Shown: positions 745 to 46,095 of the stretch, piece after piece
How positions within the stretch are numbered: position 1 is the stretch's first letter
Layout of the letters: every line of letters starts with the position of its first letter
Translations under genes and position numbers: made by a program
NCBI GenBank assembly: GCA_965178125.1
Contig: OZ237742.1
Coordinates: 1,364,001-1,411,617, forward strand
Source: Bilabrum cf. latius
Taxonomy: Eukaryota
DNA: 47,617 nucleotides
Reading direction: 5' to 3'
Notes under the pieces: model-generated
Databases searched by the model: none
The model's input: the letters and a program-made list of their open reading frames with translations, nothing else
Told to the model about the DNA's origin: nothing

Positions 745-1000
745 TCGGGACGCTGGGACTGCCTCGAGTTGTTCACGCAAAAAGTATGCGCATGGCGACA
801 GTCCTGACTAGAATATGACAGTTTGTGGCTAGCAATTCGAAGAGGTGCGATTTCAACCGTCATTAGCAGGTGTGTGATGAGTGACTATAGGTGGTGCTTC
901 CGATTGGCGGAAAGACGCCTATTCTCAACAGTAGCACACATTGTTGCCTCGGTTAACAACATAATCATATTTTTCTACTATTTTGGACGCTTGAAGAGAA

Positions 1001-2779
1001 ATGGCGAAGCAGTTGAACTGGGATGACTTGGGTAAGACCAGCTTTACTACTCAAGGGCCGTGGCAAGCTTGCGTTTGAACCATGAGCCCCTACAGATACC
1101 CCCATCCCTTCTTTACCTCGCAGATAAAAACAAGTTTTATGTGTACAGTCCAATGGTTTTCTTCATGGTCCGCTTGGTCAACCACCCTGGTGAGACTTGT
1201 CACGATGAGCACATGGTCCGCCTCCAAGTATAGCTTCCGTACGTTGGCGTCCATCTGAACCCGAGCACGAACACAGTGAGGAATTTTAACGATTAACGTA
1301 CTTCATTTCGCAGCTACATTGGTAAAGACGCGACTGCAGATGCAGAAAGAACGCGTAGCTGGGGGTCTAGGTGCTAGGTAGTACCGGGGCTCGTGGCACG
1401 CGGTTTAGTCGATCGTGAGAGAGGAGGGATTTCGAGGTCTTTGGAAAGGTTTCGGGACGAACTCGCTTAACCTGGCAGTAGGACAGGTGTACATTACAAT
1501 CTTCGAATACCTGAAGACCCCGCGGGTGTTCGGCAGCAGCGTACCGGAAGAAGCTCGCACTGCGATGGCTGCGTGCACAGCCGTGATGACGGCGTAGACA
1601 CTGGCAAATCCCATTGATATCCTTGCCCAGAGACTCATGGTAGAGCGTGGGGATGGCCGCAGCACCGCAGGAAATGCTCAGGGCGCTGCAGGGGAGTCTG
1701 CCAGCAAGACGGCGGGCAAGGGTGCTGGTGCCTCGGCCTCCAGCAGCACGCGCGGCATGCACACGATGGCAGGAGAGTGGGCGGGCAATTCAAGGCAACA
1801 AGGTGCCTCTGTACCTCGGGGATACAGCCGGGCAGGGGCTCTTGCTGCACGGGCCGCTGGATCTGCAGGGGTAAGCACGGGCCGGTGGGCCTGGTCCGCG
1901 GCTGTCTCTGGCGGTGTGACGAGTGCGAGGAGAGCTGCCAGGCGCGCGGCGGGGAGCTGGCGCCGATGGCTGTCCAACGGAGAGCCGGGGGAGGGCGCGA
2001 AGGGGACGGGCCCGCGAGCCGCTGGCTCTGGGGCTTCCGGTGCAGGCGTTAGGACTGGGGCAGGTGTGGGGGTGGGGGCTGGGTCTGGGGCTGCTGGGGC
2101 GTCGTCAGGCGGAACTATGTCGGTCCCGTCCTCTGTGGCGTCTTCCAGCCGTCTGCGGGCGGCGGAGCGGTTCCCGGGTGCGTTGGGGAACAGGGGTGGG
2201 TTGCTTGCGCCCTTTGTGCTGGCCTCGTCGGTGTGGCGGGCCGAGGGCATGCGGGGGTTCTACAGGGGGTACTTCGCCGCTATCGTGCAGAATGCGCCTA
2301 GCTCTGCGCTCTGGTGGTCCTCGTACGGGTACTACAGGAAAGCCATGCTCAGGGGCATGGGCTCGGCAGGGGCAGGGGGAGGGGGCAAGAAGGCTGCGGC
2401 GGGTGCAGCGCAGAGCAAACCGGGGCAGGTGCCGGGGCACAACAAGTTCGCCGCAGATGCTGGGCCATCACCTGGTCCCAAGGCAGCCGAAGGCAGCGAG
2501 TTTGGTGGTTGGCGGGAACGCGTGTGCGAGTCTGTTTCCGGGGCCATGGCTGGCACCACCGTGGCGATTCTGGGCAACCCGCTGGACGTGATCAGGACTC
2601 GGGTGCAGGTGGAAGGGGGCACCGTGTCGGGTGTGACGAGGGAGATGCTGGCCCAGGAGGGCGTCTCGGCGCTGGGAAAGGGCATCACAGCGAGGATATG
2701 GATGCTGGCGCCCAACGGAGCCGTGATCATGACTGCCTATGAGCTCATCAAGCGACTCTCGGCCAAAGACGCGGAGTGA
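1001..2779 (+). CDS. Mitochondrial carrier, SLC25A44-like; 3 exons (1001-1031, 1124-1189, 1314-2779), 520 aa
   Basis: Spliced product MAKQLNWDDLDKNKFY...NHPATLVKTRLQ...EGFRGLWKGF...NPIDILAQRL...EGMRGFYRGY...NPLDVIRTRVQ has three carrier-repeat signatures. Introns GTAAG..CAG (1032-1123) and GTGAG..CAG (1190-1313) keep the frame. In-frame TAG at 1379, 1406 and 1595; ends TGA. Confidence 0.9.
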
Positions 2780-2937
2780 AGGAGCGATCGAGCGGGCACG
2801 TGGTCCAAGCGAATGATTGGATAGCATGACGTGGTGTGCGAGGCAAGAATGAACAGAAGCACTGAACCTGGATCAACACAATTCACATTTTGTTCACGGC
2901 AAGAAGGTTGGCCCACCCCCCTCACGCCACGGGTCCC

Positions 2938-4233
2938 TCACGCCTTGCCACCGGCCGCCTGTGCCGCCACCGCCGCAGCTGCCTTCTCGATCTCGGCCTG
3001 GTCACCCAGGTACCTCCCGCTGAGCGTGCCCTTGGGCTCCCCGTTGCGGCGCAGGGGCAGCATGTCGGGCCCCAGCTCGTACACGAGAGGCACGCCCGTG
3101 GGGATGTTGAGCTCCGTGATGTCCTCGTCGCTGATCGCGTCCAGGTGCTTGACGAGTGCCCTGAGGGAGTTGCCGTGCGCCGCGATGAGGAGCCGCTTCC
3201 CGCTGCGGATGTGCTGCTCCACGTTGTCCTCCCACCACGGGATCACCCGCTTCACCGTGTCCTTGAGGCTCTCGCTGCGGGGGATGTCCCCGGGGGCCAG
3301 CTGGGCATACCTGGGGTCATTCCCCGAAAAGTGGGGGTGCGACTCGTCCAGCTCCGGGGGAGGGATGTCGTAGCTGCGGCGCCAGATCTTGACCTGGTCC
3401 GCCCCGTGCTTGGCCGCGGTCTCTGCCTTGTCCAGCCCTGCGAGAGACCCGTAGTGCCTCTCGTTGAGGTGCCAGTCCTTGCGCACCGGGATCCACAGCT
3501 GGCCCATCTCCTCGAGGGCGGTGTTGCACGTCATGATGGCCCTGGACAGCACCGAGGTGAAGGCCTCGTCGAACTCGAGGCCTTCCTCCTTCATCAGCTG
3601 GCCCGCCTGCCTGGCCTCGGCCTTGCCTGCATAGGGGGGAGCACGGGACAGGCGAGAGCGTGGCGAGATAGGGAGTGCGCAGATATTGCTGTACCGATAA
3701 TGCTGCGGTCCTAGATCCAAGCAGTTGTGTCGCTGATACTAGCGGCAATTTGCGGGAAGCGGCATGGCTGGTGGGCTGCCCACCACTGCTCGATCGGCTG
3801 GCTTTGGTCACTGGGCGGTCTTCGCCCACTCGCACAATGCAGCAAACTTTCTTCGGGCTGCTGTTCGCCGCTCAGCAAGATACAGCACGCGCACGCCCGA
3901 AGTTGCCCAGAACCATGTCGCATCAGCAACCTGTCACTCCGTGGATTCGAAGATCCAAGCCTTCCTCACCTTGTTCAGTTAGCTTCACATCCACCCAGCC
4001 AGTGAATCTGTTTTGCAAGTTCCATTCGCTCTATCTGCACGAAACATATTGAAACGTCAGTCCATTCTAAGTGTTCAGCGAAGCAGCGCTAGCATCTGGA
4101 TGTGACTGGCAGGTGATTTCTCATGACGCGCACCTCACCCGTGCCGCATCAAGACCAAAGTGTGGCTGCTTGCGAATCTCCGCGCTCCCTATGATCCAAA
4201 CAAGCGACGAGATAGCCGTCCAACTCGCATCAT
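2938..4233 (-). CDS. gpmA: 2,3-bisphosphoglycerate-dependent phosphoglycerate mutase with N-terminal mitochondrial presequence; exons 4233-4139, 4034-3970, 3626-2938 (282 aa)
   Basis: Spliced sequence [28 protein letters not shown]...FTSVLSRA...WHLNERHYG...[10 protein letters not shown]...SESLKDT...AHGNSLR...[13 protein letters not shown] matches all dPGM motifs. Introns 4138-4035 and 3969-3627 are GTGAG..CAG. TAG at 4191-4189 and 4033-4031; ends TGA. Confidence 0.95.
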
Positions 4234-4500
4234 TCTGCTACAGCCAAAGATTTTCTGTGACCTGGGCGAGGCGCCGACCGGTCGCAAACAGAAACCGCGA
4301 AACAACCGGAAACAGCGGAACCGAGAGGCGCCGCGAATCCAAGACATCCGTGTGATGAGTGGAATTGACCGGTTCTTTCCGTGGGCATGTCAGCCGACGA
4401 ACTGGCTGTTCCACGGCCATGTGGAATCATAACTTAAATCAGTGAAATCCACAGACTCCAATTCAGCTTCGCGTCACACCAATTAGTGTTCTCGCTTGCC

Positions 4501-5763
4501 ATGTCGGGTACACAGGCCGCACATTAGCTTGTCCTCGAGCGCTGGTATGGTGGCCGAATTGGAGTCGACACAGAAGAAACGGGGCCATTTGAGGCCAAAA
4601 GTGGAGGATCGCTCTCACGCTTTATCGAAAAGGAGTCTCTGGAAAAGTCAGTTCCGATGGTGATTCGGCAGTTCGGACGCAGCTTTCCGGACGGTTGTCC
4701 AGACTGGGCAGAGATCCGGGCTATGTGCGGCAGGAACCAGGAGGCAACGGTCGCTGTATCAAGAGGTGTTGAGGAGCATGACGGGCCAACCACTAAAGTT
4801 CGAGTACCAGTGCCGCTGGCCGACTTTGTTGATGGCATCCTTGCTGGAAACCCAGAAGCTGCAGTGGTGCAAGCACAGTCCAGCTCTGGTGACGACGAGA
4901 TGACATCATAGGCAGGCGGCTGCTCATCTGAACCCTAGGTTGATGGCTCCTCGCAAAAGCCCCGCGGTGACGGCGTCCTGTATGCCAAGCAGTTCGACAT
5001 CGTGTCCCTGCTGCCCGAGCTCAAGGCGCGCCTGCCCAGCTGGAGCGAGCCGCTGGCACTGGCCCCTGCCACGACCGGGCTCGGTGGGGACCGCATTAAG
5101 GAGGTTAGTTGCAAGGGTCTCTTCAGTCCCTGGCGCTGCCTGCACACAGTGTGCGGGTGGATCGCCCCCGCGGGTGCAGTCACCGGCGCTCACACGGACG
5201 ACGAGCACAACGTCCTGGTGGTGCTCGCGGGGGAGAAGGCAGTCACCCTGGTGCCGCCTGCGGACGCGAGACTGTGCTACCCGAACAGCAAGTATGACAG
5301 CGGCACGGTGTGCTTCGACGCCAACATCGAGTCCCCCGACCTGGGGGCACACCCATCGGTGGCCCGGGCCAGGAGACAGACGGTCCTGCTGCGGGCGGGT
5401 GACGCCCTGGTGCTGCCGCAGGGGTGGGTGCACCAGGTGAGGAGCCCCGTTGCATCTGCCAGCCTCAACGTGTTCGCAAGCACTGTGGGCGAGGCGGTCA
5501 CTCACGGGGCGGGCAGGATGCTGGCGGAGTGGATGCACGGCATTGGGGTGTACCGGTGGGGGCACTGCGTGTGCCATGCAGCGCCAGATTGCAAAGAGTG
5601 CGGTTGGGAGGATGACGAGTGCGGCAGGGAGGTCAAGGACAGGGCCCGGGTGGCCAGGGGCTCGCTGCTGGCGCTGGCGGGGGCGGCGGTTGGCGTCGGG
5701 CTCGCGGGCGCGTTTGCGTCTCGAATGGCCGCGGTTGGATCGGGATGTCTCGGACTGAGATGA
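4501..5763 (+). CDS. JmjC/cupin-8 2-oxoglutarate Fe(II) oxygenase (420 aa), hydrophobic C-terminus
   Basis: One frame from ATG 4501 to TGA 5763 through TAG at 4525, 4909 and 4936. Motifs PMVIR, LYAKQFDI..LPEL, WI...TGAHTD (HxD) and LRAGDALVLPQGWVHQV (distal His). Confidence 0.85.
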
Positions 5764-5915: not shown

Positions 5916-8900
5916 ATGGCGGCAGCGTCTGCAGCCTCTACCGTCGACGGTTCATGGGTAGAAATATTTGCTAGCTCAGATGTGGCCGGAGTTGATTTCG
6001 ATTCTGACGGAAAGATCCTGGGTTGTGGTGGAAAGGAGGACGACCGATGCGGTGTCCGCTACTATAAGTCTACGGTGAAGGCATCGGAAGAGCTTTACGA
6101 TGCAGACTTCTTGCGTGGACCATCGCAAACCTTTGAATTGGTTCACTATGGCAAGCATGGATTCGGACGCAACGAGGCCGCGATCTTCGTTGGATGCGGG
6201 GACGAAGTGCACCGCCTCAACCCAATCACAATGTCACCGAAAGGAATGGTGCTCAAGGCCCAGCTCAAGATTTAGAGCATCCATACGTGTCCTTCCAAAG
6301 CATGGGTGTGAGTTCGCAGATTTCTCACTAGGCAACCTACGTCTCTGGATCGCGTCCCGCATTCAAACCAGAGCGCGTCGCGTTTCATCCCCACAAGGCA
6401 GACCGATGCGTTCCTTTGCTTCCAAGTAGGCCATATGGCATGATACAGATGATTTCCCTGTTTCGCTTGCTACTTCATTCGCAGGGTCGTGGCCAGTGAG
6501 GACGGCGACCTCGCTTTCTTGTCCACGGCGAACCACGAGGTCCTCTTCCGGGAGCGCCGCGCCCACGGAGGAGCAGGACTGCGCCACGCCCAGTTCTCCC
6601 CGTGTGGAAACTACGCTGCGTCCCTGGACTGCGAGGGCAAGGTCAGGTTTTGGTGCACCGCGCGGCTTCCCGCAGACGGCAAGCCAGCGGCAGGCACGGA
6701 CATGGGAGACGCCGAGTGGCGGGACTCGGTCCGCCCCATGCCCCTTGGGCCCGATGTGCGCGCCCTGGAAGATATGCCCGCCGGCGACAAGGCCCCCGCG
6801 GCTGCTCTTAGGGGCCAGGGGGAGGAGGTGCCCGGCCTGCGGCTGAGCTGGCACCCGTCCTCCCTGGCAGTGGCTGTGCCGGGGGCCAGGCACGTGCTGC
6901 TGGTCAGGAGGCCCAGGAGGGTGGGGCTGCCTGCGGGGAGCCCGCCCTCGCAGGAAGAAGCTGCCACCGGAGTGCTGCGTGCCGCTCGTGCTGCCAAAGC
7001 GGCCGTGCACAGGTGCCCCACTGCAGCCATGTCGCTGGCGTGGTCTCCCGGAGGCAGGCTGCTGGCGTGCGCCACGCTGGGAGGAAAGGTGAGACGCACT
7101 GCGGAGAGGATCCACTCGTCGTGCTGCAGCACGCTGCACCCCGTTTGCATCGCCCCTCCTGTGCCCTTCCTCACCGCACTGCACTGCACTGCCCCCCCCC
7201 TACAGCCACCCCCTGTGCCACACCCGCAGCTCATGTACCTCAAGGCACCCGCCGACGAGGACTCCACGTGGGCCCAGTGGCGGGCCCCCGATGCCTCCTT
7301 CCAGGCCCCTGAGAAAGCCCCTGTCTTCGCCCCCACGGGGCCGCTGGCTGACCTGGGATCAGCGGTGTGCGAGCTCAGGTGGAGCGAGGCGGGGACCCAG
7401 CTGGCCGCAGCCAACAGCGGAGGCTAGCTCCTTGTGGATGCTCCCCCTATTGTGGACGCGGCTGAGGGTGCCCTGGGTGAGGCCAAGGTCGCTGAGAAAC
7501 CCGGCGCTGTTGCCGAGGGCTCGGCAGCGAGTGCGGATGGGGCCAAGCAGGAGGAGGAGGATGAGGAGAAAGCCCCAGAGGGCAATCCAGCCGAAAAGGA
7601 AGCGAAGGACGGTAAGGACGAGGAGGACCAGTCGCCCTCGCTGAGCCCCGAGGAGCTGGCAGATCTGGAGGCGATGCAGGCCATGGTGGACGGGGAAACG
7701 GAGGAGGAGAACAACGAGGATGCTCAGCAGGGACAGGCCAGAGAGGGATCGGCCCAGGTCGACTCGAGCAAGGAAGAGGGCTCGGAGGAAGGGGAGGCCA
7801 AGGAGGAGTCTGCCGAGGTGGTATCGCTGGCGATGCTGGCCGAGGAGGAGGACTCGGACGAGGACGAGGAGCTCGCGGGGGCGCGCAACATGGGCAAGCG
7901 GAGGAAGGGCAGGAAGGCGAGGAGGGGCGCGGGGCTGCTGGACGATGAGGCGGCAGAGGGCAGCGACGGGGAAGAGGGGGGCAGGGGCGAGGACGAGGAC
8001 GAGGACGGGGAGGGCAAGCGTGTGGGTGGGATCAACCGCATGCGTGAGATCCTGGAGCGCCAGGAGCAGCTGGCTCGGCTGGTGGAGGAGTCCGAGGAGG
8101 CCAGGGAGCGCGAGGACAGGGCGGCCAGGACGGACAAGAGGGGCGAGGGGGAGAAAGACGCGATGGCGGAGGCCATGGTGGGTGCGGAGGAGGGGGCTGA
8201 TGCGGCGGATGGAAGCACGTAGGGAGTGGGGATCGGGCAGCAGGCCATGGACGGCGAGGGGCCGCACGACGATGACGAGGAGGAGGACGTAGACGAACAC
8301 GAGGGCGCGGATGGGGGCGTGGACCATGCGCAGGCCGGCGGGATGATGATGATGCAGGGGCCCATCGCCGCCGCCCCCGTCTCTCACCCCGTGGTGCAGC
8401 CGGGCGCAGCGCCGCCCACCCGGAGAGACCCGACCCGGTCCTACCTCTGCTGGAACCCCTTCGGCACCGTGGTGCGCAGGGAGGCGCACGACGCTGACGA
8501 GGTGCGCGTGGACATCGAGTTCGCCGCGCTGGCGGGGCAAGGGGGGGACAGGGACGGGGCGGGCTCAGCCGATGCAGGTGGGCTCGGGAGGGCAGCTAGT
8601 GCGGGTCGGGTGCAGATCAACGAGAACGCTGCGGGGGTGACCTGCGCGACGGTCGGCGCTGCGGGCGCTCTGCTGTGCTGTCCTGAGATCGAGGAGGACG
8701 GGGAGGAGGACGAGGAGGTGCGCAAGAGGAAGAAGGAGGCGCGGAAGAGGGGCGAGAAGTACGTGGGAGGGGAGGCCGCCACTGTGCAGTTCGTGCCCGT
8801 GAAGAGGTGGGACCTGGGAGGGGGGGCGGCGGGCCAGGGGCAGTGGGTGCTGCCGCTGCCCCGCGGGGAGGACGCGCTGGCCTGTGCCGTGGGGAGGGAG

Positions 8901-10976
8901 TGGTGCGCGGTGGCGACGAGCCAGAGGATGCTGCGAGTGTTCGGCCCTTCTGGAACCCAGGAGGCCCCCCTGATGCTCCCAGGGCCCGTGGTCTCGATGG
9001 CCGGCAGGGGGCCCCTCCTCCTGGTGGTGTACGCCATGGCCCCTGCCAGCGCGAGGCAGCACCCCTTGGGGTGGCAGCTCATGGCCTGCCCGGACTCGAG
9101 GTCAAGCCAGCTCGGGGGCCTGGCGGGGGTCGGGGGTGCCAGAGCAAGCAGGGGCAGGCAGTCGGGCGCTTCGTCCTCGTCGTCCTCTGCGGCGGGCAGG
9201 GGCGAGGAGGAGGAGCTGCTGCCCCTGGGCGCGCCTGCCGCGGTGGGCGTGGGCGGCACGCCGGGCTTTAAGGGAGTCGGGACTTCGGCCGGAATGCACG
9301 GCGGGCTGGGCGTGGGCACAGTCCCGCGGGTGCTCGCGCATGGCCAGCTGCCACTCCGGCCAGGGGCTAGGCTCGCGTGGGTGGGGGTGACGGCTGAGGG
9401 CGTGGCGTGCGCGCTGGACACTAGGGGGATGCTGACTGCGCTGTCTCCCGGGCACGGCTTCTCCTGGGTGCCCATCCTGGACCTGCCCTCGGACGGGGTG
9501 TGCATGCGCGCCGACGAGACGCCCTTCATGGTGGAAGTGGACGGGCGAGAGGCACAGCTGTACGTGTGCAGGCACGGGGAGAGGAGTCCTCCGCACGTGC
9601 CTCGCCCGCTGCCCATCAACGTGCCCCTGCGCGCCCCCATGGCCGGCATGCGGCCCGCCCTCAAGAAGAACGCCGCCCTCGAGGACATGCCCGTCCCCGC
9701 CTGGCAGCAGGACGCGGATGCGGTGCTGGTGCGCGTCAGGCAGGACGTGAGGAGGTGGTGCGCGGCGTGCGGGCTGCGCATGTCCCTGGGCAAGGGGGAC
9801 GCCCCTGGCGGTGACGTCAGCCGGGTGGCATCCGCCGCGGTGGGCACGTCTGGATGGGCGGCCACCAACCGCCGGGAGATCTTGGCGGCCAGGGGCTCCG
9901 ACAAGGCGGTGCTCAAGCTGCTGATCCAGTCTCTGCAGGGCAAGGGGCCAGGGGCGGCGGGAGGCGCGCTGGGGCAGGCGGGCGGGCCTCCCCGTGCCCT
10001 GGAGCTGGCTCGCAGGCTGCAGCTGCCCAGGTCCATGGAGCTCGCGGCCCGCATCGCGCAGCAAGCCAGCCCCCCGCAGCCCGCGCTGGCCGACCGCATC
10101 GCGCAGCTGGGGAGGGCGAGGGCAGTCGAGCGCCAGCGGGCGGCGGCACACCCGGTGCTGGCACCCTCGAATGCTGGGGTCCAGGCCTCTGCCTCTTCCT
10201 CTTCCTCTGCGGCTGCGGGGGGTGCCAGCACGGAGGAGGCCCGCACGGCGGCTCGCGAGGAGATCCGGGCAGTGGCCCCCAGGCTGGGGGAGAGGGCACA
10301 GCGGTTCGGGGCGGAGGCGGCGCGGGAGGCCATGGCGGGGCTGGAGGAGGCGCTGCTGGCGCGGCTGCGGGCCGAGATTGTAGCGCTGACGGGGACTGGC
10401 AAACCAGCGCTGGGGTCAAAGCGGGTGCGATTTGAGCGGGAGAATGAGGAGAAGGGCGAGAGCGAGATAGAGGGAGTCGCCGCATCGGGTGGGGAAAGCG
10501 CTGTCATGGAGGACGAGGAGGACAAGGCCCAAGTTGATGCGGACGAGCCCAAGTCGAAGAGGGCGAGGGTGCACGAGCAAGACGAGGACAAGGGCGAGGA
10601 AGCAGGGACGCCCCCTCCGGGGCAGCGGGGTGCCTCTGCACCTGGTGGGACCAACTCGGCGGTGAGGAGCGCCGGCGTGTCACCATCGCGCGGCAAGGGC
10701 TAGGGCAAGAGGCGCGGCGCAGGCGGGAGCAACCCGTTCGCTCGCCGTGAAGTGGCATCGCCTCCACGGCGTGGGGGTCTCTCTCAGCTGGTTGCAGGGT
10801 CACCTGCGAGGGAGGCTGACAAAGTGAGCCTCGGGCTGGACGGTTCTCCTGCACGCGGCGGCTCGAAAGCCTCCGAGGAGAGCAACGGAGCGATGCTGAG
10901 CCCGCTTCGCAGGAACAGCACCCTGGCACGCGAGGGCAGGCAGAAGATGAGGCACGACATCGACGCTATGGAATGA
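5916..10976 (+). CDS. WDHD1: Ctf4/And-1 (WDHD1) replisome hub protein; exons 5916-6307, 6485-7088, 7230-10976 (~1580 aa)
   Basis: N-terminal WD40-like repeats (AQFSPCGNYAASLDCEGKVRFW, SLAWSPGGRLLACA), an acidic linker, then a SepB-type domain (VVQPGAAP..RSYLCWNPFGTV; LPRGEDALACAVG.EWCAVATSQRMLRVF; LAWVGVT.EG...LDTRG...WVPILD). Five ORF-track pieces join through two GTGAG..CAG introns and TAG at 6273, 7425, 8220 and 10701; ends TGA. Confidence 0.85.
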
Positions 10977-13551: not shown

Positions 13552-13727
13552 GGGGGGCCAAAATATGTGCGTACAGAAATCGGCCCCGAAACCGACAGGT
13601 TTTAATCTTCTTCTTGAAAGTTCAACACGCAAGGTTGCAACCGGCAGAATATTTCGCAGGATCCGTGGTGTGGTGCTAGCCACTTGAACCGGCATTCCGA
13701 CAATAAGAAATTGTTGCTTTCTCAGCA

Positions 13728-15518
13728 ATGTCAGCTGCTGCAAAGGGTGAAGCTGGCAGCTCTTCGCTTGACGTTAAGCCCCCATCCAAGGAGCTAGAGA
13801 GCGTGCTGGACTCATTGAAGCGAATTTACCGAACCTCACTCAAGCCAGTGGAGGAGCGGTACAACTACGGGGAGTTCTATCAGCCTATTCTCACCGATGC
13901 TGACTTTGATGCCAGACCAATGGTGCTCCTTGTAGGCCAGTACAGCGTTGGCAAGACGAGTTTCATTCGCTACCTGATCGGGCGCGACTTTCCCGGTATC
14001 CGCATCGGACCTGAGCCTACGACAGATCGGTTCCACATCGTACTTCATGGTGATGCAGATAGGGAGATCCCTGGCAACGCTCTATCCGTCCACAAAGATT
14101 TGCCGTTCACCTCCCTCTCAAAGTTCGGCTCCGGCTTCCTCTCGAGGCTGCAGGCCTCGCAGTGCGATGCGCCTCTCCTGAAGCACGTGACGCTGGTGGA
14201 TAGCCCCGGCGTGCTGTCTGGTGCAAAACAGCGGATCGGTCGGCAGTACGACTTCACGCGCGTGATCGAGTGGTTCGCCGACCGCTGCGACATGATCCTG
14301 CTGCTCTTCGACGCGCACAAGCTGGACATCTCGGACGAGTTCAAGAGCGCCATCGAGGCGCTGCGGGGCCACGACGACAAGATCAGGGTGGTACTCAACA
14401 AGGCCGACAAGGTGTCCTCCCAGCAGCTCATGCGCGTGTACGGGGCCATGATGTGGAGCCTTGGCAAGGTGGTGCGCACCCCTGAGGTGATGCGCGTGTA
14501 CATCGGGAGCTTCTGGGACCAGCCCTGCCAGAACCCGAGCATGGAGGAGTTCTTCGCCGCCGAGCAGAGCGATCTGCTGAAGGACCTGCAGGCCATGCCC
14601 CACAACGCTGCGGTCCGGCGAGTGAACGACCTCATCAAGCGGACGAGGCTCTCCAGGGTGCACGCGCTCATCGTGTCCCACCTGCGGGAATCCATGCCCG
14701 TCATGTGGGGCCACGAGGCCAAGCAGAAGGAGCTGCTGGACAACATGGCGAACGAGTTCTTTAAGGTGATGAAGAAGCACCACCTGCACAAGGCCGACTT
14801 CCCCAACCTCCGGAGGTTCCAGGAGGTCGCGGCCAACTTCGAGTTCACCAAGTTCAAGAACATCAAGCCGGAGCTCATTGAGGTCGCCCAGCGGGCCGTG
14901 CAGGAGGAGATCCCCGCGCTGCTGGCCCGCATGAGCGACGAGGCCACGGCCAAGGCGGCCACCCAGATCAAGGGGACGCTGGCCATGTCCGGGGGTCGCA
15001 TCGTGGCGGCGGGGGGAAGGGCCGGCTCGGGGGCCGCTACGGGGGGGGCGGGCAGCGTGCCTCTCATCCGAGACGCGCCCGGGGCCGCGTCCCCGGGTGC
15101 GGCTTCGGCCGGGCCCGACTCGGCGGTGGCGGCCCCGGCCGCGAGCGGGGCCGGGGCCGGGGACCCGTTCGCCAGCGGGGGCGGCGACTCGGGCAACCCT
15201 TTCGGCACGAACACGCACGACGCGTGGTCCCGGCTGGTGAACAAGGCCGAGTCGGACAAGCTATTCGCGGGGTTTGCGGGCGCCAAGGAATCGGGGCGCA
15301 TCGCGGGGTCCGCTCTTCGGGAGTTCATGCTCGAGAGGAGCGGGCTGCCCGGGCCCGACCTGTCCAAGGTGTGGACCCTGTCGGACATCGACAAGGATGG
15401 CTACCTCGACCCGCTCGAGTTTGCCGTGTGCGTGTACATCATGGACCAGGCCAAGGCGGGCTCGGGGGTGCCAGATGTGCTGCCCCAGGAGTGGGTGCCT
15501 CCGTCCAAGCGCAAGTGA
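13728..15518 (+). CDS. EHD1: EH-domain-containing dynamin-like ATPase (EHD1/RME-1 family), 596 aa
   Basis: P-loop GQYSVGKT, IGPEPTTDRF, DSPGVLSG, LFDAHKLDISDEF, VLNKAD, RVYIGSFW, an NPF motif and a C-terminal EH domain (LSKVWTLSDIDKDGYLD). Single exon, no TAG, ends TGA. Confidence 0.97.
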   Translation: MSAAAKGEAGSSSLDVKPPSKELESVLDSLKRIYRTSLKPVEERYNYGEFYQPILTDADFDARPMVLLVGQYSVGKTSFIRYLIGRDFPGIRIGPEPTTDRFHIVLHGDADREIPGNALSVHKDLPFTSLSKFGSGFLSRLQASQCDAPLLKHVTLVDSPGVLSGAKQRIGRQYDFTRVIEWFADRCDMILLLFDAHKLDISDEFKSAIEALRGHDDKIRVVLNKADKVSSQQLMRVYGAMMWSLGKVVRTPEVMRVYIGSFWDQPCQNPSMEEFFAAEQSDLLKDLQAMPHNAAVRRVNDLIKRTRLSRVHALIVSHLRESMPVMWGHEAKQKELLDNMANEFFKVMKKHHLHKADFPNLRRFQEVAANFEFTKFKNIKPELIEVAQRAVQEEIPALLARMSDEATAKAATQIKGTLAMSGGRIVAAGGRAGSGAATGGAGSVPLIRDAPGAASPGAASAGPDSAVAAPAASGAGAGDPFASGGGDSGNPFGTNTHDAWSRLVNKAESDKLFAGFAGAKESGRIAGSALREFMLERSGLPGPDLSKVWTLSDIDKDGYLDPLEFAVCVYIMDQAKAGSGVPDVLPQEWVPPSKRK

Positions 15519-15621: not shown

Positions 15622-16029
15622 TTACAATCGCCTGGCCTTCCTCGGTCGGCAGCCATTCGTAGGCAACGGAGTGATGTCTTCCATGCGCGTGATTCCCAAC
15701 CCGTGCGCCACAATCTATTGCGCCATAACTGGCCTTCCTCTACCAAGACCTTTAAATCGAAGCACAATGTTCCTAGCGCCTAACTTGTACGCTTGGCCGG
15801 CTGCTTTCGCAGCGGCCTGGGCTGCGAATTCGGTTTCAGACCGCATATGCCCCCTCTGGAACTGGCCCGAGGAGCTCTTGCACATAACTTCTCCATTCAT
15901 TTTCGAAAATACAACATGCGCGTTATTCATCGTGACAGTGCAGGTCGCAAACGAATCCGGTCGAACTACCTGTCTCATCAGCCGCTGTCCTCCTGATCTC
16001 AACGCGGCAGAAATCCTGCTCGAAGCCAT
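15622..16029 (-). CDS. rps11: Ribosomal protein uS11, organellar (mitochondrial) type, nucleus-encoded; 5' end uncertain
   Basis: [22 protein letters not shown]...[11 protein letters not shown]...[11 protein letters not shown]. Reading through the TAG at 15717-15715 gives the S11 C-terminal signature [19 protein letters not shown], ending in TAA at 15624-15622. Confidence 0.85.
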
Positions 16030-16267
16030 CCTTAATAACTCGCTTGAATTACTAGATGTAGGATATTGAAGCCAAATTCAGGCCTCGGCGAGCACAAACT
16101 GGAGAAGTGTACATTTTCTGGCCACGAAATCGTTTTCATATTGTTGCGTGTACCTGGGCGCAGCGGAAACCGCGAACCCGTAGTGCTTGATGTGTTGCCC
16201 CATCACTTGAAACTCGGGTACAACGTTTCGAAAATGTTTCGCTTAAAGCCTACTACTCGCTGCAGCA

Positions 16268-18142: not shown

Positions 18143-18613
18143 TCACCTGTTGAATACCGCAGCTCCGAATACGCTCGCTATGCAGTACATGGACACGCCT
18201 TCGCTCTTCTTTTGGCTGGGCCACTTGTACGTCACATGATTATCGTTCACGCCATCCCAAAAAAATGAATCGGCCGAATGGATACCAGCACCAGTATCTT
18301 GAGCAATCGTGCAGTGTACAATGTACTTGAATGGCTTCACTGCTGCCAAGCGGGCCATCACACCATCACAAATGGCATCGATCCAGCCTGGGACATCATC
18401 TTCTTTGTACTCTTTCTTTTCTAACACCTCATCGACAACGCTCTGCAGGATACCTTCAACTTCCTCGTTGATGAAAGCAGACTGCAAGGTAGGTCAAGAT
18501 TAGGCAGGCAGTGCAACACAAATATCACGTTCCATACCACCTGTATCCTATATCAACTATACAGTAGTACTTCTTACGTCATCAGCTGTCTCAATGGCCT
18601 CCACAGACGACAT
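18143..18613 (-). CDS. DYNLT1: Dynein light chain Tctex-1 family; exons 18613-18578 and 18481-18143 (124 aa)
   Basis: AFINEEVEGILQSVVDEVL..KEY....V..WIDAIC...KPFKYIVHCTIAQDTGAGIHSADSFFWD...D...SMYCIASVFG; GTAAG..TTGCAG intron; ends TGA. Confidence 0.92.
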
Positions 18614-18990
18614 TAGCTTTAGACAGCACCGTTTTGGCTTTCTTGTGCAACCGCTCTACGAATGTTCCGCAAGAAATGCGCGGCGTCCGACAATGTGGTG
18701 ACGGCCACTCGGTGTTTTTCCGCAGATTCACGCCTAGCAACTGCCGGCTGAAATTTGCATTTTGTATGTGAGAAGAAAAATGATCAAGTATTGAAACGTT
18801 GTATCCCCAGCTCCTTCGCATCTCTCTTGTCAATACTTGTCAAGGGCGTTTCAACCTTGAAGTGAAACCGAATCCTCCCAGTAACCTTCTTTGCGAGAAC
18901 GGCTTATATTCGATCAATCAGATCACGTTTTTCACCACACTCTGTACTTTTATTTGTTTTTCTATTCATCGCAGGCAAGATTCTGGCAAA

Positions 18991-21900
18991 ATGAGGCATT
19001 TTAGGCGCTCCAGACTTGACGATGGTAGTATCACACGTAGGAGTGGGAGCTGCAAGCCGCGCAGGTCGGGGCGGCATGGATGCGCGGTGAGTTACAACGA
19101 AATGTCATTGTTAGAATTGCGTTTGCAACTAGCCCGTTGGTGCGTTGCAACGGACGAAGGATTACACGTTGGAATTGCCACTTTGAAGAAGCTTCCTGAC
19201 GTATCGCAGAAGAGACTGGTCAAGAATGAAAGCGGCGCAGCTGGAATTGAGGAAACTGGCGCCCAACTATCTGAAGGGTCTTAGTCTCGGGCCATCGCGA
19301 TTAGATCACACAAGCCCTTCTCGCTGCAGTACAGGATCCCTCCGAGCAACCGGCGATGCCAATCTGCGAGGAGTCGGAGGCAGCGAGCCGAATCTAGAAG
19401 TAGTGCAGGCAGCCTAGAATCACGTGCTGTACGCTGGGGGTATTCTTCTGACGATGATAGCCATATTGGCATGCTCTCGCCCCGCCGGCCTCGTTATGAT
19501 AGCGGGACCTCCGAGAGCGACTTGGACGGTGGAGTCCTAGAGCCGTTCCATGGCAGTGGCATCGAGGGGGATAGAGAGAGAGTCAGTGGGAGGGTCGAAG
19601 TGGCTGAAAGCACGCTGGCAGAGCCCCACCATTCACCAATGTCTCCCTCCCCAGCCCCCAGCGGCAGCAGTCGCCCGCTGCCCAGCGGGGGGTCCTCTGT
19701 GGCCCGGTCCATGGGCAGGGCCTCCCCTCCCATCGCTGCAGGGACGGCCAGAGCTGGAAGCGAGCAGGAGAACTAGGTGCGCATGTCACCAGAGGGGGAT
19801 GGTCCGGTTGCCCTCGGCAGCGAGGCGGGGACCTGCGCCGGCACACCGGTGCGCATGGCCTCCTCGTGCGCCTTCAGCTGCGACGGAGCTGAGCAGGACG
19901 GCGACGAGTGTGACGAGTGCACTGGTGGCCCCAAAGGGCCTGAGGCATCACCCGGCATGGTTAGCGTTGGGTATGATCCCAGAGGTGCGAACAGCAGCGT
20001 GTGGGGGTCTGGGTGTCTGTCTGGTTCTGACATCGATGAGGAAGAGGCTGGCACCGGGCTGGGGGGCAGCTGCGCGCCGCTGACCATGCCCAGGATACTG
20101 GACTTGGGCGGCAGTGCCGCTATGGAGCGGCCCAAGAACAGCAACGCGGCTCGCGGTCCCAGTTCACCCGTCCGTCTGCGTCGAGATGCGCCCAACAGTG
20201 GTGGGCCGGACTCGATGGACACGGTGCCATTCTCGGTGCGGATGCAGGACTTCTCTCACACCAAGCCGCAGGTGCAAGTGCAGCAAGGCACCTGTATGGT
20301 CCATCAGAAGGCAGGTGCGAAGTCAAGGACGGTGTCCTTCCGCGATGACGTCAGCAGGCCCGCCCCGCTGAACCCCCCAGGGGTGTCCCACGAGCACGCG
20401 ATCGAGGCTCTCTCGCCCGTGCTCAGTCACCAGGCAGTGGTGGTGGTTGCCAGGACGGCGGTTGTTGCCGCGCCTGACGCCGCCACGGGACGCCAGCAGG
20501 GCAGTTCCTCTTCATCGTCCTCGTCTGCTGGTGCCCCTGGCAGGCGCGGCAGGCCAGGGCCCAGCGCTCAGGGCGGTTCCCCCCGGCAGGAGGAAGCGCG
20601 CCATGGGACATTGGAGCATGTGCTGCGACGCCACCCTTCGGACGTGCAGCTGGCGCCATCCCGGTCCTTCGATGAGGCAGGTGACGAGGCTGAGGAGGCC
20701 TTCGAGGGGCACGCGGGGGATGTCGGGGTGGGGGAGGAAGCGGGTGAGAGCAAGCGATCCCTGGCGCGGATGGGCAGCATCCTGCAGGGGTTACGGCTGG
20801 ACGACGTGCGCACGGGCGAGAACAGGGGCAGGAGCACGCACAGGAAGGGCAGGTCTGGACAGGGAGCAGGCAAGGCTCGCAAGCTGCCATCTGCCTCGCC
20901 CTTGGCGTCTCCGACGGGTATGAACAGCCTGCCATCTGCTTCGCCCACCGGTGGGGATGCTAGTGAGGAGAGCGCGTGGGGGCATGGGTGGATTGCCTCG
21001 CTGGGCCGCATGTCGCAGGACTCGCTGCACTCGGGCGGCTCCAGGGGCTCGCTGAGATCCAAGCCCGCTGCGGCAACCTCGCGGTCCAAGCTCGGGTCCT
21101 CCTCTTCCTCCTCCTCTCGGTCGATCGGCCGGCGGGACAGGCCTGGCTCTGCCACGGGCTCGATATCCGGTGGCTCCCCAGACCTGGGCCTGAACATCGA
21201 CAGCAGCACCTGCGGGCCGTTAGACAGCCCCGCCCGTGCTGCAGGAGACAGCCCCGTGGAGCAAGCCGCCAGCAAGGGCAAGGGCAAGGGCGGGGCCCTG
21301 GCTCGGGTATCGAGCGCGGTGCGGCGCGCCGCATCTTCGAGCCAGGACACTCGCGCGGGGTGGATGTCCCCGGTGGGGGGCCAGCATTCGGATGGCGGTT
21401 CTGTGCTCGAGACAGAGGAGGGCGAGGCTGCCGTGGAGCTGGCTGAGCTGATGGCGAGGCAATCAATCAAGCGGTCTAGGAGCGATTTCGAGATGGGAGG
21501 ACAAGTCCCAGTCGAACGCAGGTGGAAGGGGGTCGGCATGGACCAGGTGGCACCGCCCCAGGCATGCAATATCGACCGTGCGAGCAAGCGGCCCAGACTG
21601 GTGCGGGGAGCATCGCACGAGGTGCTTCCTAGCCTGGGGCAAGAGGGCTAGAGTGCCAGCATGCAGGATGACGAGGGGTGCGTGTCCATCGGAGGGGCGG
21701 TCCACCGGCCCATTATCCCCACGCTCCACATGGCGCCCCCGCTGCTGGCGGGACACCTGGGCGGTCCTCCCCCGAAGACGGCGTATGACTGGCGGCACCA
21801 GGTCTCGATGCCCACGGTCTAGGGGCCCATGCCCATGGACACAGACAATGAGGGCATTGCCAAAGGCAAGGATGGGTCGCGGTTTGCAGCGTCATCGCCA

Positions 21901-23082
21901 GCGCAGCCGGTGGGTGAATTCAGCGGCTCAGCTTCTCGTATGGGTCCTATCGTGCTGCCCCAGTCCGCCCTTGAATACTCCATGCAATAGGGCCTGGAGC
22001 TGGATGAGGAGGAGGGGCGGCCGGACAGCGTGCTCATGACAGACATGCAACGCATGACCATGGCTGCCGCTGCTGTCACGCAGGCCTCCCTCCACGCCTT
22101 CGGGATCACAGCATGCGCTGCTCTGGCCGTGTGCACGCCTGTCGGGGGCAAGGACGGTACCGGGTCATCGTCGGCATTTCATAGTGCTAAGGCAAGTGGA
22201 GCCTCTGACACAGGAGCTCAGACTAGCACAAGCTCCGATCGCATGCCTGATGAGCCGTGGGTGCAGCGCACGGCGGATGCGCTCGACAGGCAGGGTGTGC
22301 CGCGGTCTGCCGAGGCCTTCGCGCGAGCATGGGTCGGTGAGCAGGGCCTGGCTTGCGCCCTTGCGGCGCACGAGTCCAGCACGGCCACATCCTCCTCCAC
22401 GTCTGCCGAATACGCCGCGAGAGTCCCCTCGGCAGCCTCATACCGTAAGGGGCGCGTGGGAAGGTACTGCCTGTCGGAGCGGCGGGCCATGCTGCGGCGC
22501 TGGATGGGCAAGCGCAAGCGCCGCGTGTGGGGCAAGGACCAGGTCAGGTACAAGTACCGGCAGGTGGTCGCGCTGGCGAGGGCCAGGGAGGGCAAGGGCC
22601 GCTTCGGGAACTCGTCACTGGGCAAGAACGCGCTGATGGAGGCGGCAGGCAGCGATCCCGAGATGCTGCGCAAGGTGCAGGCTACCATCCGGAAGAAGGG
22701 CAGCCACGGGGGTAGGAGTGGCTCCAGTGGCTCCAGTGGGTCGAGGGCCAGGTCACGGTCCATCAGCAACGAGGAGGCCGCGGGACTGGGGCGGTAGCGC
22801 AAGATGAGCGCAGGCAGCGACGAGCAGGATGTGGTGGGCCTGTCCGACCTGGATGGGCCTGCACCTGCAGGCCTGGGGCTTGGGCGGGGCAGTGGACGTG
22901 GTCGGGGTACGCGAGGCGGGTCCAAGCAGAGGAGGAGGGGCCGCGGGCAGTCCTGGTCCAGCCGAGGGGGCGCCCCGATGGTGAGCTCCGAGGATGGAAG
23001 CGGAGAGGAGGACGAGCCCGAGTATGTGCCGAGAGCCACCACCACCAGGTCTGGGCGCAAGACGGGGCGCAGGCTGGTGTGA
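18991..23082 (+). CDS. Large disordered Ser/Gly-rich protein with C-terminal CCT domain (~1363 aa)
   Basis: One frame from ATG 18991 to TGA 23082 with six TAGs (19282, 19774, 21649, 21820, 21988, 22795) and no TAA/TGA. CCT-like motif VGRYCLSERRAMLRRWMGKRKRRVWGKDQVRYKYRQVVALARAREGKGRF at ~22455-22605. Start Met uncertain. Confidence 0.75.
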
Positions 23083-24496: not shown

Positions 24497-24704
24497 GATT
24501 GCTGTGGTGCAGAAATTTAGCTTATAGACTCCGAGTCTAAATCGATCGGATGCCCCACCAACAAGTAGACCTGTTATCTGCGGACCAGGCAGCATTTGGC
24601 AAATTCCTAGACTTCAATGATGGATCTTCCCTGCAATGTCTGATAATTGTCAGATCCCTGTCCTTGGGTTGTTATTTGCTACTCACACATACATGCACCA
24701 TGGT

Positions 24705-24976
24705 CCATCCATCGCCCGCACACCCAATCTGCTTGCCCCGGCATGTACCATGACCCCATCCACCGCCCGCACACCCAATCTGCTTGCGCCAGCACATGTA
24801 CCATGTCCCCATCCACCGCCCGCACACCCGACCTGCTTGCGCCAGCACATGTACCATGACCCCATCCACCGCCCGCACACCCGACCTGCTTGCGCCAGCA
24901 CATGTACCATGACCCCATCCACCGCCCGCACACCCAACCTGCTTGCTCTAGCACATGTACCATGACCCCATCCACC
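24705..24976. repeat. 53-bp telomere-adjacent satellite, ~5 copies
   Basis: ccatcc unit starts at 24705, 24756, 24809, 24862, 24915 and 24968. The last unit is truncated and runs directly into TTAGGG. Confidence 0.92.
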
Positions 24977-25070
24977 GGTTAGGGTTAGGGTTAGGGTTAG
25001 GGTTAGGGTTAGGGTTAGGGTTAGGGTTAGGGTTAGGGTTAGGGTTAGGGTTAGGGTTAGGGTTAGGGTT
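24977..25070 (+). repeat. (TTAGGG)n array T1, ~15 units
   Basis: Perfect TTAGGG repeats. Confidence 0.99.
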
Positions 25071-26719
25071 ACAGTACCATCCTAGGCCAGGCCCGGGCGC
25101 CGCGAAAGTATCATGTTCCGCAAAAAGTATCATGTTCCGCATAGACGGTGTTGCCGCGCAGTGTCCAAGTGGTCGCAAGATCGCACTGAGGCAGATCTGG
25201 GCCAGTTGCAGAGATGCAAGCAGTCGACAAGAGGTGCAAAGTCGACAAGAGGTGCAAGTGATTAGCAATGCATATTTGGTGTATGATTATGATTGTCTGC
25301 TTGGTTTGCAATGAATCTCGGCCTCGGTCTCCTCGGTGGTGCGGCCCGTGGGTGACGAGCACCCAGGGGGCTGCACGGGATGGACGCCCACCCGGCGAGT
25401 CTGGACCAAACCGCGTCGTGCAAATTGGGTTTGCCAAGGAGGTGTGCCCTGCTGTGTTTCGCCCGCGAGAATAGGGGGTTGTCTCCCCGTCGGGCAGGTG
25501 CTCCATCCAGCTCGCCCGTCCATGACTGAGACAGCACGGGCCGCGACAAGTGCGCGAGCCCGGGGATCAAGTCAGCGGCCGATGGCAGCGAGCCGGCATG
25601 AAGCGCGTGCACGAGGAGCTTGCGCTCCCCATGCACTGCCTGCCCCACCTCATTGCGGATCTGGGACATCAGGTTCATCGTGTTGCCACACACACCTCCA
25701 CACTCGACGATCGGATCTACAGAGACACCTGTCCCGGGATGCTGCTCCTCGTCATTGGCCTGCTCCTTCTCGCCCCGGGGGCACGCGCTGCCTCGAAGCA
25801 CGCACCCGCGCTCCCGCCCGACTCAAGGACTGAGTGCTGGGAGGGTGCGCGGGCAGCCGCGTGAGAGGACGACGGGCGTGCCGCCGAAGGCCGAGTCCAG
25901 GAGCTGGGGACGGGACGCATCATTGGGACTGCCCTGAGGAGACCAAAGAATCAACCGCCATCCGTACGGATCCCTATACGGTTGGCCGGTCTGACTCTCT
26001 GCTCGCCCACTGCACGGATCTGCTCAGTTCCATGCAATGTTTGCCAAAAGCGGCGAGAGGGTCTCATCAGCACAGGTGGGTCCTAAAAGCTGCCTGCAAT
26101 GCATAGGAAAAGAATAAAACGATTGAAAACAAATTAATAGCCCCTCAATGCAAGGCAACATACCCGAGTGCTGCCATGAAAACCGGACAACGCACAAGCA
26201 CGTCAGCAGACCAGCGATGATCCCATACAGATGCCAGAACCACACACAATTACAAAGCAAACAAACTGAATGAATACAATAGAATTAAAACACCTGGCGG
26301 TTGTTTTACTCGGGCTATGCTGTACCTAGCTGTTCTGTCTGCAAGCGCCATCGCGCGCCCCAATGAGGCGAGACCTAAGCAGAGCTACAGCAGCATGCCA
26401 CCTTGGACACACCGCGATATATGGCAGGAAATGGCAATTAACATTAATCCCAACAGGTTCCAGGACAGTTGAGCCTGTCTGTGGTGCTGAGAGGTGTGGT
26501 TGCGCTAGAATTCGCCAACGGTTGTGAACACTGGCAGCGGAACCAGTTAGCTAGGCGGCGCGGCGTCTTAGGCTGCACAATACTGTCAGACTTTGCAGTG
26601 AATACCGTCAATCTCGCATCATAGTTTCAAACGATGAGTACTTTTGTTGATTGTGATAGTGGAAGTCAGTCCGAGTGCATTGGTTGGGCGAATATTTGAG
26701 ATTCCTCATCTTCGGAGTT
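25071..26719. mobile_element. Telomere-embedded cassette A, copy 1 (1649 bp)
   Basis: Begins ACAGTACCATCCTAGG right after GGGTT and ends CGGAGTT before GGGTTAGGGTAGGG. Near-identical to 27588-29218; the left ~1.45 kb is homologous to 36073-~37520. Mobility is inferred. Confidence 0.7.
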
Positions 26720-27587
26720 GGGTTAGGGTAGGGTTAGGGTTAGGGTTAGGGTTAGGGTTAGGGTTAGGGTTAGGGTTAGGGTTAGGGTTAGGGTTAGGGT
26801 TAGGGTTAGGGTTAGGGTTAGGGTTAGGGTTAGGGTTAGGGTTAGGGTTAGGGTTAGGGTTAGGGTTAGGGTTAGGGTTAGGGTTAGGGTTAGGGTTAGG
26901 GTTAGGGTTAGGGTTAGGGTTAGGGTTAGGGTTAGGGTTAGGGTTAGGGTTAGGGTTAGGGTTAGGGTTAGGGTTAGGGTTAGGGTTAGGGTTAGGGTTA
27001 GGGTTAGGGTTAGGGTTAGGGTTAGGGTTAGGGTTAGGGTTAGGGTTAGGGTTAGGGTTAGGGTTAGGGTTAGGGTTAGGGTTAGGGTTAGGGTTAGGGT
27101 TAGGGTTAGGGTTAGGGTTAGGGTTAGGGTTAGGGTTAGGGTTAGGGTTAGGGTTAGGGTTAGGGTTAGGGTTAGGGTTAGGGTTAGGGTTAGGGTTAGG
27201 GTTAGGGTTAGGGTTAGGGTTAGGGTTAGGGTTAGGGTTAGGGTTAGGGTTAGGGTTAGGGTTAGGGTTAGGGTTAGGGTTAGGGTTAGGGTTAGGGTTA
27301 GGGTTAGGGTTAGGGTTAGGGTTAGGGTTAGGGTTAGGGTTAGGGTTAGGGTTAGGGTTAGGGTTAGGGTTAGGGTTAGGGTTAGGGTTAGGGTTAGGGT
27401 TAGGGTTAGGGTTAGGGTTAGGGTTAGGGTTAGGGTTAGGGTTAGGGTTAGGGTTAGGGTTAGGGTTAGGGTTAGGGTTAGGGTTAGGGTTAGGGTTAGG
27501 GTTAGGGTTAGGGTTAGGGTTAGGGTTAGGGTTAGGGTTAGGGTTAGGGTTAGGGTTAGGGTTAGGGTTAGGGTTAGGGTTAGGGTT
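26720..27587 (+). repeat. (TTAGGG)n array T2, ~144 units
   Basis: Perfect repeats after one TAGGG variant unit near the start. Confidence 0.99.
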
Positions 27588-29218
27588 ACAGTACCATCCT
27601 AGGCCAGGCCCGGGCGCCGCGAAAGTATCATGTTCCGCAAAAAGTATCATGTTCCGCATAGACGGTGTTGCCGCGCAGTGTCCAAGTGGTCGCAAGATCG
27701 CACTGAGGCAGATCTGGGCCAGTTGCAGAGATGCAAGCAGTCGACAAGAGGTGCAAGTGATTAGCAATGCATATTTGGTGTATGATTATGATTGTCTGCT
27801 TGGTTTGCAATGAATCTCGGCCTCGGTCTCCTCGGTGGTGCGGCCCGTGGGTGACGAGCACCCAGGGGGCTGCACGGGATGGACGCCCACCCGGCGAGTC
27901 TGGACCAAACCGCGTCGTGCAAATTGGGTTTGCCAAGGAGGTGTGCCCTGCTGTGTTTCGCCCGCGAGAATAGGGGGTTGTCTCCCCGTCGGGCAGGTGC
28001 TCCATCCAGCTCGCCCGTCCATGACTGAGACAGCACGGGCCGCGACAAGTGCGCGAGCCCGGGGATCAAGTCAGCGGCCGATGGCAGCGAGCCGGCATGA
28101 AGCGCGTGCACGAGGAGCTTGCGCTCCCCATGCACTGCCTGCCCCACCTCATTGCGGATCTGGGACATCAGGTTCATCGTGTTGCCACACACACCTCCAC
28201 ACTCGACGATCGGATCTACAGAGACACCTGTCCCGGGATGCTGCTCCTCGTCATTGGCCTGCTCCTTCTCGCCCCGGGGGCACGCGCTGCCTCGAAGCAC
28301 GCACCCGCGCTCCCGCCCGACTCAAGGACTGAGTGCTGGGAGGGTGCGCGGGCAGCCGCGTGAGAGGACGACGGGCGTGCCGCCGAAGGCCGAGTCCAGG
28401 AGCTGGGGACGGGACGCATCATTGGGACTGCCCTGAGGAGACCAAAGAATCAACCGCCATCCGTACGGATCCCTATACGGTTGGCCGGTCTGACTCTCTG
28501 CTCGCCCACTGCACGGATCTGCTCAGTTCCATGCAATGTTTGCCAAAAGCGGCGAGAGGGTCTCATCAGCACAGGTGGGTCCTAAAAGCTGCCTGCAATG
28601 CATAGGAAAAGAATAAAACGATTGAAAACAAATTAATAGCCCCTCAATGCAAGGCAACATACCCGAGTGCTGCCATGAAAACCGGACAACGCACAAGCAC
28701 GTCAGCAGACCAGCGATGATCCCATACAGATGCCAGAACCACACACAATTACAAAGCAAACAAACTGAATGAATACAATAGAATTAAAACACCTGGCGGT
28801 TGTTTTACTCGGGCTATGCTGTACCTAGCTGTTCTGTCTGCAAGCGCCATCGCGCGCCCCAATGAGGCGAGACCTAAGCAGAGCTACAGCAGCATGCCAC
28901 CTTGGACACACCGCGATATATGGCAGGAAATGGCAATTAACATTAATCCCAACAGGTTCCAGGACAGTTGAGCCTGTCTGTGGTGCTGAGAGGTGTGGTT
29001 GCGCTAGAATTCGCCAACGGTTGTGAACACTGGCAGCGGAACCAGTTAGCTAGGCGGCGCGGCGTCTTAGGCTGCACAATACTGTCAGACTTTGCAGTGA
29101 ATACCGTCAATCTCGCATCATAGTTTCAAACGATGAGTACTTTTGTTGATTGTGATAGTGGAAGTCAGTCCGAGTGCATTGGTTGGGCGAATATTTGAGA
29201 TTCCTCATCTTCGGAGTT
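27588..29218. mobile_element. Telomere-embedded cassette A, copy 2 (1631 bp)
   Basis: Same termini as copy 1; lacks the 18-bp duplication (agtcgacaagaggtgcaa) present in copy 1. Confidence 0.7.
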
Positions 29219-31170: not shown

Positions 31171-31223
31171 ATATCAAGGCACAAATAGCTCACAAGGAAG
31201 GAGATGCCGATATCAAGGCATTT

Positions 31224-45859: not shown

Positions 45860-46095
45860 CCATCCATCGCCCGCACAAACAACCTCCTTGCCCCGGCACA
45901 GCCACCATGGCCCCCATCCATCGCCCGCACACCCACCCTCCTTGCCCCGGCACAGCCACCATGGCCCCCATCCATCGCCCGCACACCCAACCTCCTTGCC
46001 CCGGCACAGCCACCATGGCCCCCATCCATCGCCCGCACACCCACCCTCCTTGCCCCGGCACAGCCACCATGGCCCCCATCCATCGCCCGAACACC
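45860..46095. repeat. 54-bp telomere-adjacent satellite, ~4.3 copies, related to the 53-bp satellite at 24705
   Basis: ccatccatcgcccg starts at 45860, 45914, 45968, 46022 and 46076. Confidence 0.92.

Follow-up and report, generated by a model that had tools for sequence, protein, structure and literature searches.

In the 47.6-kb stretch of contig OZ237742.1 analysed here (the window, meaning the whole stretch), UAG is very probably a sense codon for glutamine (Gln, Q), with UGA and UAA still acting as terminators. The window is GC-rich eukaryotic nuclear DNA (51–73% GC per 2-kb bin) with spliceosomal introns, and its code pattern is of the type of NCBI table 15 (UAG = Gln, UAA and UGA = stops). 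UAG would serve as an ordinary, rather rare Gln codon in the nuclear genes. The assignment is based mainly on two genes, a mitochondrial carrier similar to SLC25A44 (1001–2779, + strand) and a phosphoglycerate mutase (dPGM; 2938–4233, − strand). Each has an in-frame TAG at an informative position, referred to as site 1 (1595–1597) and site 2 (4033–4031). The same two sites had led a sequence-only reading of this DNA to propose Gln. In the peptides given below, an asterisk stands for an in-frame TAG.

With TAG as a sense codon, the longest open reading frames (ORFs) of the window were 2167–2168, 1507–1508 and 1432–1433 codons long, compared with a maximum of 827 codons under the standard code. 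When TAA was treated as sense, the ORF lengths hardly changed. The coding segments contained 38 TAG, 0 TAA and 0 TGA among 7065 codons, together with 209 CAG and 62 CAA; TAA and TGA are missing by construction since the segments are stop-to-stop frames. TAG accounted for approx. 0.5% of the codons and approx. 12% of the Gln-type codons. The twelve long ORFs, a small sample in which some are not verified genes, ended with TGA in eleven cases, with TAA in one and with TAG in none. Gene calls made under the standard code truncate or lose such genes: dPGM gives no product and the 2167-codon ORF falls into more than 20 pieces. TAG had also been said to follow Gln codons often. This could not be upheld, as only three of 37 TAGs do so in comparison to a background of 3.8%, which is not above chance.

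The carrier gene comprises three exons (1001–1031, 1124–1189 and 1314–2779, +) and ends with a TGA stop at 2777–2779. Its product matches the Pfam family Mito_carr in three stretches (E = 2.7e-40), and 548 matches at E ≤ 1e-30 were obtained in a profile search. A near homologue (P0139) bears the name 'solute carrier family 25 protein 44', and the named homologues are spread over Guillardia (cryptophyte), Albugo (oomycete), Tribonema (xanthophyte) and Salpingoeca (choanoflagellate). For the alignment, a word-based search gave four relatives and a three-sequence profile, run against a representative library, gave 31005 matches (E ≤ 0.001); the columns were taken from the best 150 profile matches plus P0004 and P0005. 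The TAG of site 1 lies in frame in exon 3 (1595–1597, +; MTA*TLANPIDILAQRL, i.e. MTA*TLANP), five residues N-terminal to the Pro of the P-x-D carrier motif in repeat 2. In its column, Q was found in 124 of 149 non-gap rows, followed by S (8), T (7), I, L and C (2 each) and H, N, V and D (1 each), and E was found in none. Gln at this position of SLC25A44 orthologues, as previously put forward, was thereby confirmed. Two further TAGs are in frame upstream of site 1, namely in GAR*YRG (1379–1381, +) and in HAV*SIV (1406–1408, +). The carrier also has two long Gly/Ala/Ser-rich insertions (∼1650–2600, +) that are missing from all aligned homologues. The first of them was seen in an RNA contig to at least 2055 and is therefore not an intron there.

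The dPGM gene on the opposite strand has a first exon ending at 4139, a middle exon at 4034–3969 and a last exon at 3625–2938 with a TGA stop; candidate start codons are the ATGs at 4233–4231 and 4230–4228. The protein is 61–68% identical to 120 proteins, many of which are named 2,3-bisphosphoglycerate-dependent phosphoglycerate mutase. It has the His_Phos_1 fold (Pfam) and the N-terminal catalytic RHG, and its RHG-x-SEWN motif aligns with the homologues. Site 2 is the codon right after this RHG (RHG*SEWN; 4033–4031, −). The Gly codon of the motif is split by an intron, with its GG at the end of one exon (4139) and its A at the start of the next (4034), and the TAG is thus the first whole codon of its exon. 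This exon reads A-TAG-AGC-GAA-TGG-AAC, and the mRNA accordingly R-H-G(GG/A)-TAG-S-E-W-N. In the column after RHG, E was present in 64, Q in 54 and F and L in one each of 120 rows, these being the best 120 of 8000 scored homologues. This corresponds to the pattern RHG[E/Q]S that had been ascribed to this enzyme family.

A second TAG of dPGM is found in frame near its N-terminus (RLFGS*GARRF; 4191–4189, −), where all 120 homologue rows are gapped. The sole Met after this TAG sits four codons upstream of site 2, so the enzyme needs TAG decoding. The surrounding N-terminal extension of approx. 25 residues (4139–4233, −) is Arg-rich and absent in the 120 homologues, which are mostly of bacterial type. 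It may be an organelle-targeting presequence.

Spliced joints were found in the runs X6 and X7 (study P3) and X8 (study P4) at 1030/1031–1123/1124 and 1188/1189–1313/1314 in the carrier and at 3969–3625 and 4139–4034 in dPGM. All four are of the GT..AG type on the coding strand, and none was present in the DNA run X4. Given the fact that the Gly codon is split, it was conceivable that the TAG of site 2 formed the AG end of an intron; the joints settled it as exonic. They likewise place site 1 in exon 3. Both TAGs are in frame as first described. The contig pieces over 1313–2055, 3969–4034 and 4139–4200 contained 0 other letters, and the five TAGs covered (1379, 1406, 1595, 4033 and 4191) were unaltered in the spliced contigs of all three RNA-like runs. 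Identical letters are carried by the DNA runs. As the RNA contigs keep the TAGs with no other letters, these are neither spliced out nor visibly edited. For these five, an explanation by which in-frame TAGs go untranslated, being spliced out, RNA-edited or part of pseudogenes or assembly errors, is refuted. For the window as a whole, its probability is considered negligible: the RNA check spans five of the 38 TAGs and the TAGs of a cupin gene fall outside the part aligned to structures, but motifs, Pfam domains and proper stops are intact in the genes.

To identify the amino acid, the window proteins were aligned to homologues with X at every TAG, which gave five alignable TAG columns. Summed over these, the log-odds were +1.7 to +2.2 for Q and −2.2 to −2.9 for the next residue (L or H), and Q was ahead of every other residue by 4 log10 units or more. 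The mean Q fraction was 0.28 at the five TAG columns. At 24 CAG/CAA columns it was 0.37, and where the window has any other residue it did not exceed 0.06. The TAG columns hence behave like Gln columns. Two of the five columns (1595 and 4033) were informative; both allow Gln, and no other residue is frequent at the two of them. The claim that no other residue fits the two sites held in this form, and it is also in line with a syntenic relative, described below, that has CAG at both positions.

A sense codon for Glu, as known for UAR in Blastocrithidia or for UAG in one oligohymenophorean ciliate, is highly improbable here. The slight excess of E in the dPGM column after RHG (64 compared with 54 of 120) is in its favour. 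However, E did not occur in any of the 149 rows at carrier position 1595, its mean fraction at the TAG columns (0.116) was far below the self-conservation of true Glu codons (0.366), and it was not within the eight residues with the best log-odds. In addition, the relative's codon after RHG is CAG and not GAG. It is also very doubtful that UAG encodes Ser, Leu, Arg/Lys, Ala/Gly, Tyr, Trp or pyrrolysine. Single columns do lean towards other residues (R/K at 1406, L/G/V/A at 1379 and A/G in ribosomal protein S11), but no candidate was frequent in two or more columns. The 120 rows of the dPGM site contained no S, R, K, A, G, Y or W and a single L. At carrier position 1595, the 149 rows contained S eight times, L twice and none of R, K, A, G or Y. 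The earlier dismissal of Leu and Tyr agrees with their place among the residues at least 4 log10 units under Q. As regards pyrrolysine, eukaryotic nuclei are not known to have the machinery for it.

Further evidence for Gln was provided by L001, a metagenome contig of 10532 bp and 64–70% GC that encodes the best match to the carrier (P0137). Its layout is that of the window at 1000–4200, with the carrier (+) followed by dPGM (−). The Gly codon of its RHG is split at the same intron phase (...CGT CAC GG/gtgagg...cgcag/T CAG TCG GAG TGG AAC), and RHG is followed by CAG. CAG also stands at the position aligned to 1595 (LLA-Q-TVSNP). Both focal TAGs are therefore one C/T transition away from the orthologous Gln codon. 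No TAG was found in the four recognisable ORFs of L001 (305 + 294 + 458 + 333 = 1390 codons), where approx. seven would be expected at the rate of the window, so that L001 uses TAG as sense far less or never. Over the whole contig, TAG was five times rarer than TGA (25 vs 122). One TAG is located just past a JHY domain and another just past an LRR_9 gene, which fits a stop and a sense codon alike. ARAGORN detected no tRNA in L001.

The role of UAA as a stop was examined in the gene of an organellar-type ribosomal protein S11 (15622–15978 or 15622–16077, −; Pfam Ribosomal_S11). This reading frame has a TAG in frame (MAQ*IVAHG; 15717–15715, −) and ends with ...RKARRL and a TAA at 15624–15622 (−). 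The Pfam match covers profile positions 5–110 of 110, up to the last residue, and since it reaches the profile end at the TAA, this codon terminates where the family ends. A public database protein (P0128) is the S11 of this window; its sequence, ...PVMAQQIVAHG..., has Q in place of the TAG and terminates with the TAA codon. This translation does not count as independent support for Gln, and the depositors were probably aware of the code.

It is rather unlikely that UAG has no tRNA of its own or carries two meanings, i.e. that it is leaky, read as Gln by the near-cognate tRNA-Gln(CUG) and terminating in some contexts. Read-through of UAG by near-cognate tRNA-Gln is known under the standard code, according to the available part of PMC13192750. 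It also speaks for this reading that the best-conserved genes of the window are free of TAG (0 of 1050 codons: 0/597 in EHD, 0/228 in dPGM exon 3, 0/109 in ribosomal protein L4 and 0/116 in Tctex). Against leakiness, TAG ended none of the twelve long ORFs and occupies a codon at the essential catalytic site of dPGM, and an ORF with 22 TAGs would presumably not yield a full-length product at ordinary read-through efficiency. In this family-less 2167-codon ORF, TAG makes up approx. 1% of the codons. Its scarcity in the conserved genes fits, in this small sample, a rare and recently acquired Gln codon.

Several points weigh against the assignment of UAG to Gln with UAA kept as a stop. The other three alignable columns vary or point to residues other than Gln. 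At carrier position 1379, L was found in 25, G in 14, V in 12, A in 11 and Q in ten of 110 rows; at 1406, R in 59, K in 22, S in 15, V in 12, A in six and L and Q in five each of 144 rows; and in the nine rows of the S11 column, A and G four times each, S once and Q not at all. Over all five columns Q led by a margin exceeding 4 log10 units, but these three do not favour it, so the call of the amino acid depends mainly on two columns and one relative, within one window. The 33 other in-frame TAGs sit where no homologue aligns. Those of the cupin/JmjC protein fall outside the part aligned to solved structures (residues 237–347), and for the N-terminal part of Ctf4 holding a TAG there was no match in the Protein Data Bank (PDB). 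UAA as a stop is supported by one gene, S11. The RNA status of X6, X7 and X8 is a presumed label, and the case for it is their spliced joints. Low-level editing is possible, given that rare variants are dropped from contigs. Finally, no tRNA (ARAGORN) or other RNA gene (Rfam) was detected within the window, and neither a tRNA with a CUA anticodon nor eRF1 was seen there.

Besides the carrier, dPGM and S11, Pfam families were assigned to a Cupin_8/JmjC protein (4438–5763, +), an ORF of 1507 codons similar to Ctf4/Mcl1 (WDHD1-like) with three in-frame TAGs and a TGA end (6453–10976, +), an EHD dynamin-like ATPase (13707–15518, +), a Tctex-1 dynein light chain (18143–18493, −), a CCT-motif ORF of 1432 codons with six in-frame TAGs and a TGA end (18784–23082, +) and the start of the gene for ribosomal protein L4 (47291–47617, +). 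The ORF of 2167 codons (37927–44430, −) has 22 in-frame TAGs, no TAA or TGA inside, a TGA end and no Pfam match. It contains an 84-bp tandem repeat (43329–43899, −) of 6.8 copies with 98% matches, in which each 28-residue unit holds one in-frame TAG, and seven of the 22 TAGs are located there. Twelve further ORFs of the window showed no genuine Pfam family.

The window also contains five arrays of the hexamer TTAGGG with 79–201 copies in one orientation (26720–27588, 29219–29689, 34262–34717, 35455–36073 and 46099–47301). Repeated units at 25315–25830, 27814–28329 and 36299–36814 with near-identical translations and no Pfam match interleave with these arrays. Two of the arrays are preceded by 53–54-bp tandem repeats (24691–24977 and 45860–46095), and tandem repeats of 319 bp (3.8 copies, 29988–31175) and 155 bp (4.4 copies, 34779–35455) adjoin arrays as well. 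The repeats could be subtelomere-like or belong to a mobile element. The reading frame of L4 (47291–47617) starts directly 3' of the 1.2-kb array at 46099–47301, which may lie within an intron or the 5' region of this gene.

Concerning the mechanism, and going by what PMC5304391 and PMC11687900 describe for such codes, UAG would be decoded by a tRNA-Gln with the anticodon CUA, derived from tRNA-Gln(CUG). As such a tRNA should not pair with UAA, UAG could change alone with UAA staying a stop, and the recognition of UAG by eRF1 would be weakened. The window may reflect an independent and fairly recent capture of UAG for Gln in a flagellate-type eukaryote that is GC-rich, has introns and belongs to neither the ciliates nor the metamonads, with L001 keeping CAG; this is a tentative proposal that falls somewhat short of probable. 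If it is true, the window and L001 form a natural before-and-after pair in which to follow the escape of UAG from eRF1 with UAA retained as a stop. Should this code not have been known from the lineage before, L001 with its CAG makes the order of events testable, i.e. whether the tRNA or eRF1 changed first. Against novelty, the public database product of the window already reads Q at TAG.

Nuclear stop codon reassignments are rare, and a change of UAG with UAA kept as a stop is rarer still. In the available parts of PMC5304391 and PMC11687900, the UAG-only cases named are Iotanema, Protocruzia, a few phyllopharyngean ciliates, a rhizarian and Scotinosphaera. The literature search, with supplementary taxon tables outside its scope, found no paper on a code with UAG = Gln in an alga or stramenopile. 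With UAG read as Gln, the window adds another case of a rare code variant that is already known, probably in a lineage that the papers found do not name, though the public translation apparently applies the code already.

Among the known codes, UAR = Gln (NCBI table 6) is described for ciliates, ulvophycean green algae, hexamitids, Streblomastix and Amoeboaphelidium in the sections available of PMC2984419 and PMC11687900. It shares with the window the change from stop to Gln, CAG and TAG being one transition apart. It was rejected because TAA is a stop here: TAA ends S11, is not among the 7065 coding codons and brings no gain in ORF length if read as sense. In other UAG-only codes, UAG alone changes as well, with the meaning Leu in the rhizarian exLh and TARA ciliates, Glu in an oligohymenophorean ciliate and Ser in Scotinosphaera (the latter as cited in the accessible text of PMC11687900). 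These three meanings were rejected by the homologue columns.

Two phyllopharyngean ciliate lineages and Protocruzia tuzeti likewise have UAG alone changed to Gln, as stated in the part of PMC11687900 at hand. These codes resemble that of the window in the uncoupling of UAG from UAA, and the proposed logic, by which a suppressor tRNA with a CUA anticodon leaves UAA unread, matches. Unlike those ciliates, the window has ordinary GT..AG introns of 92–343 nt and (TTAGGG)n arrays, which are not ciliate-type features. Another counterpart is Iotanema spirale (Fornicata), which the available text of PMC5304391 presents as the first documented case of UAG = Gln in which UAA, together with UGA, is a stop; its eRF1 is reported to carry the change T32G in the GTS motif. 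According to the same text, UAG makes up a minor share of the Gln codons in Iotanema too (∼8%, compared with ∼12% in the window). Iotanema is an unrelated organism and its main stop is UAA, in contrast to the window with TGA at the end of eleven of twelve ORFs and 51–73% GC; in both, UAG has passed to Gln and UAA is kept as a stop.

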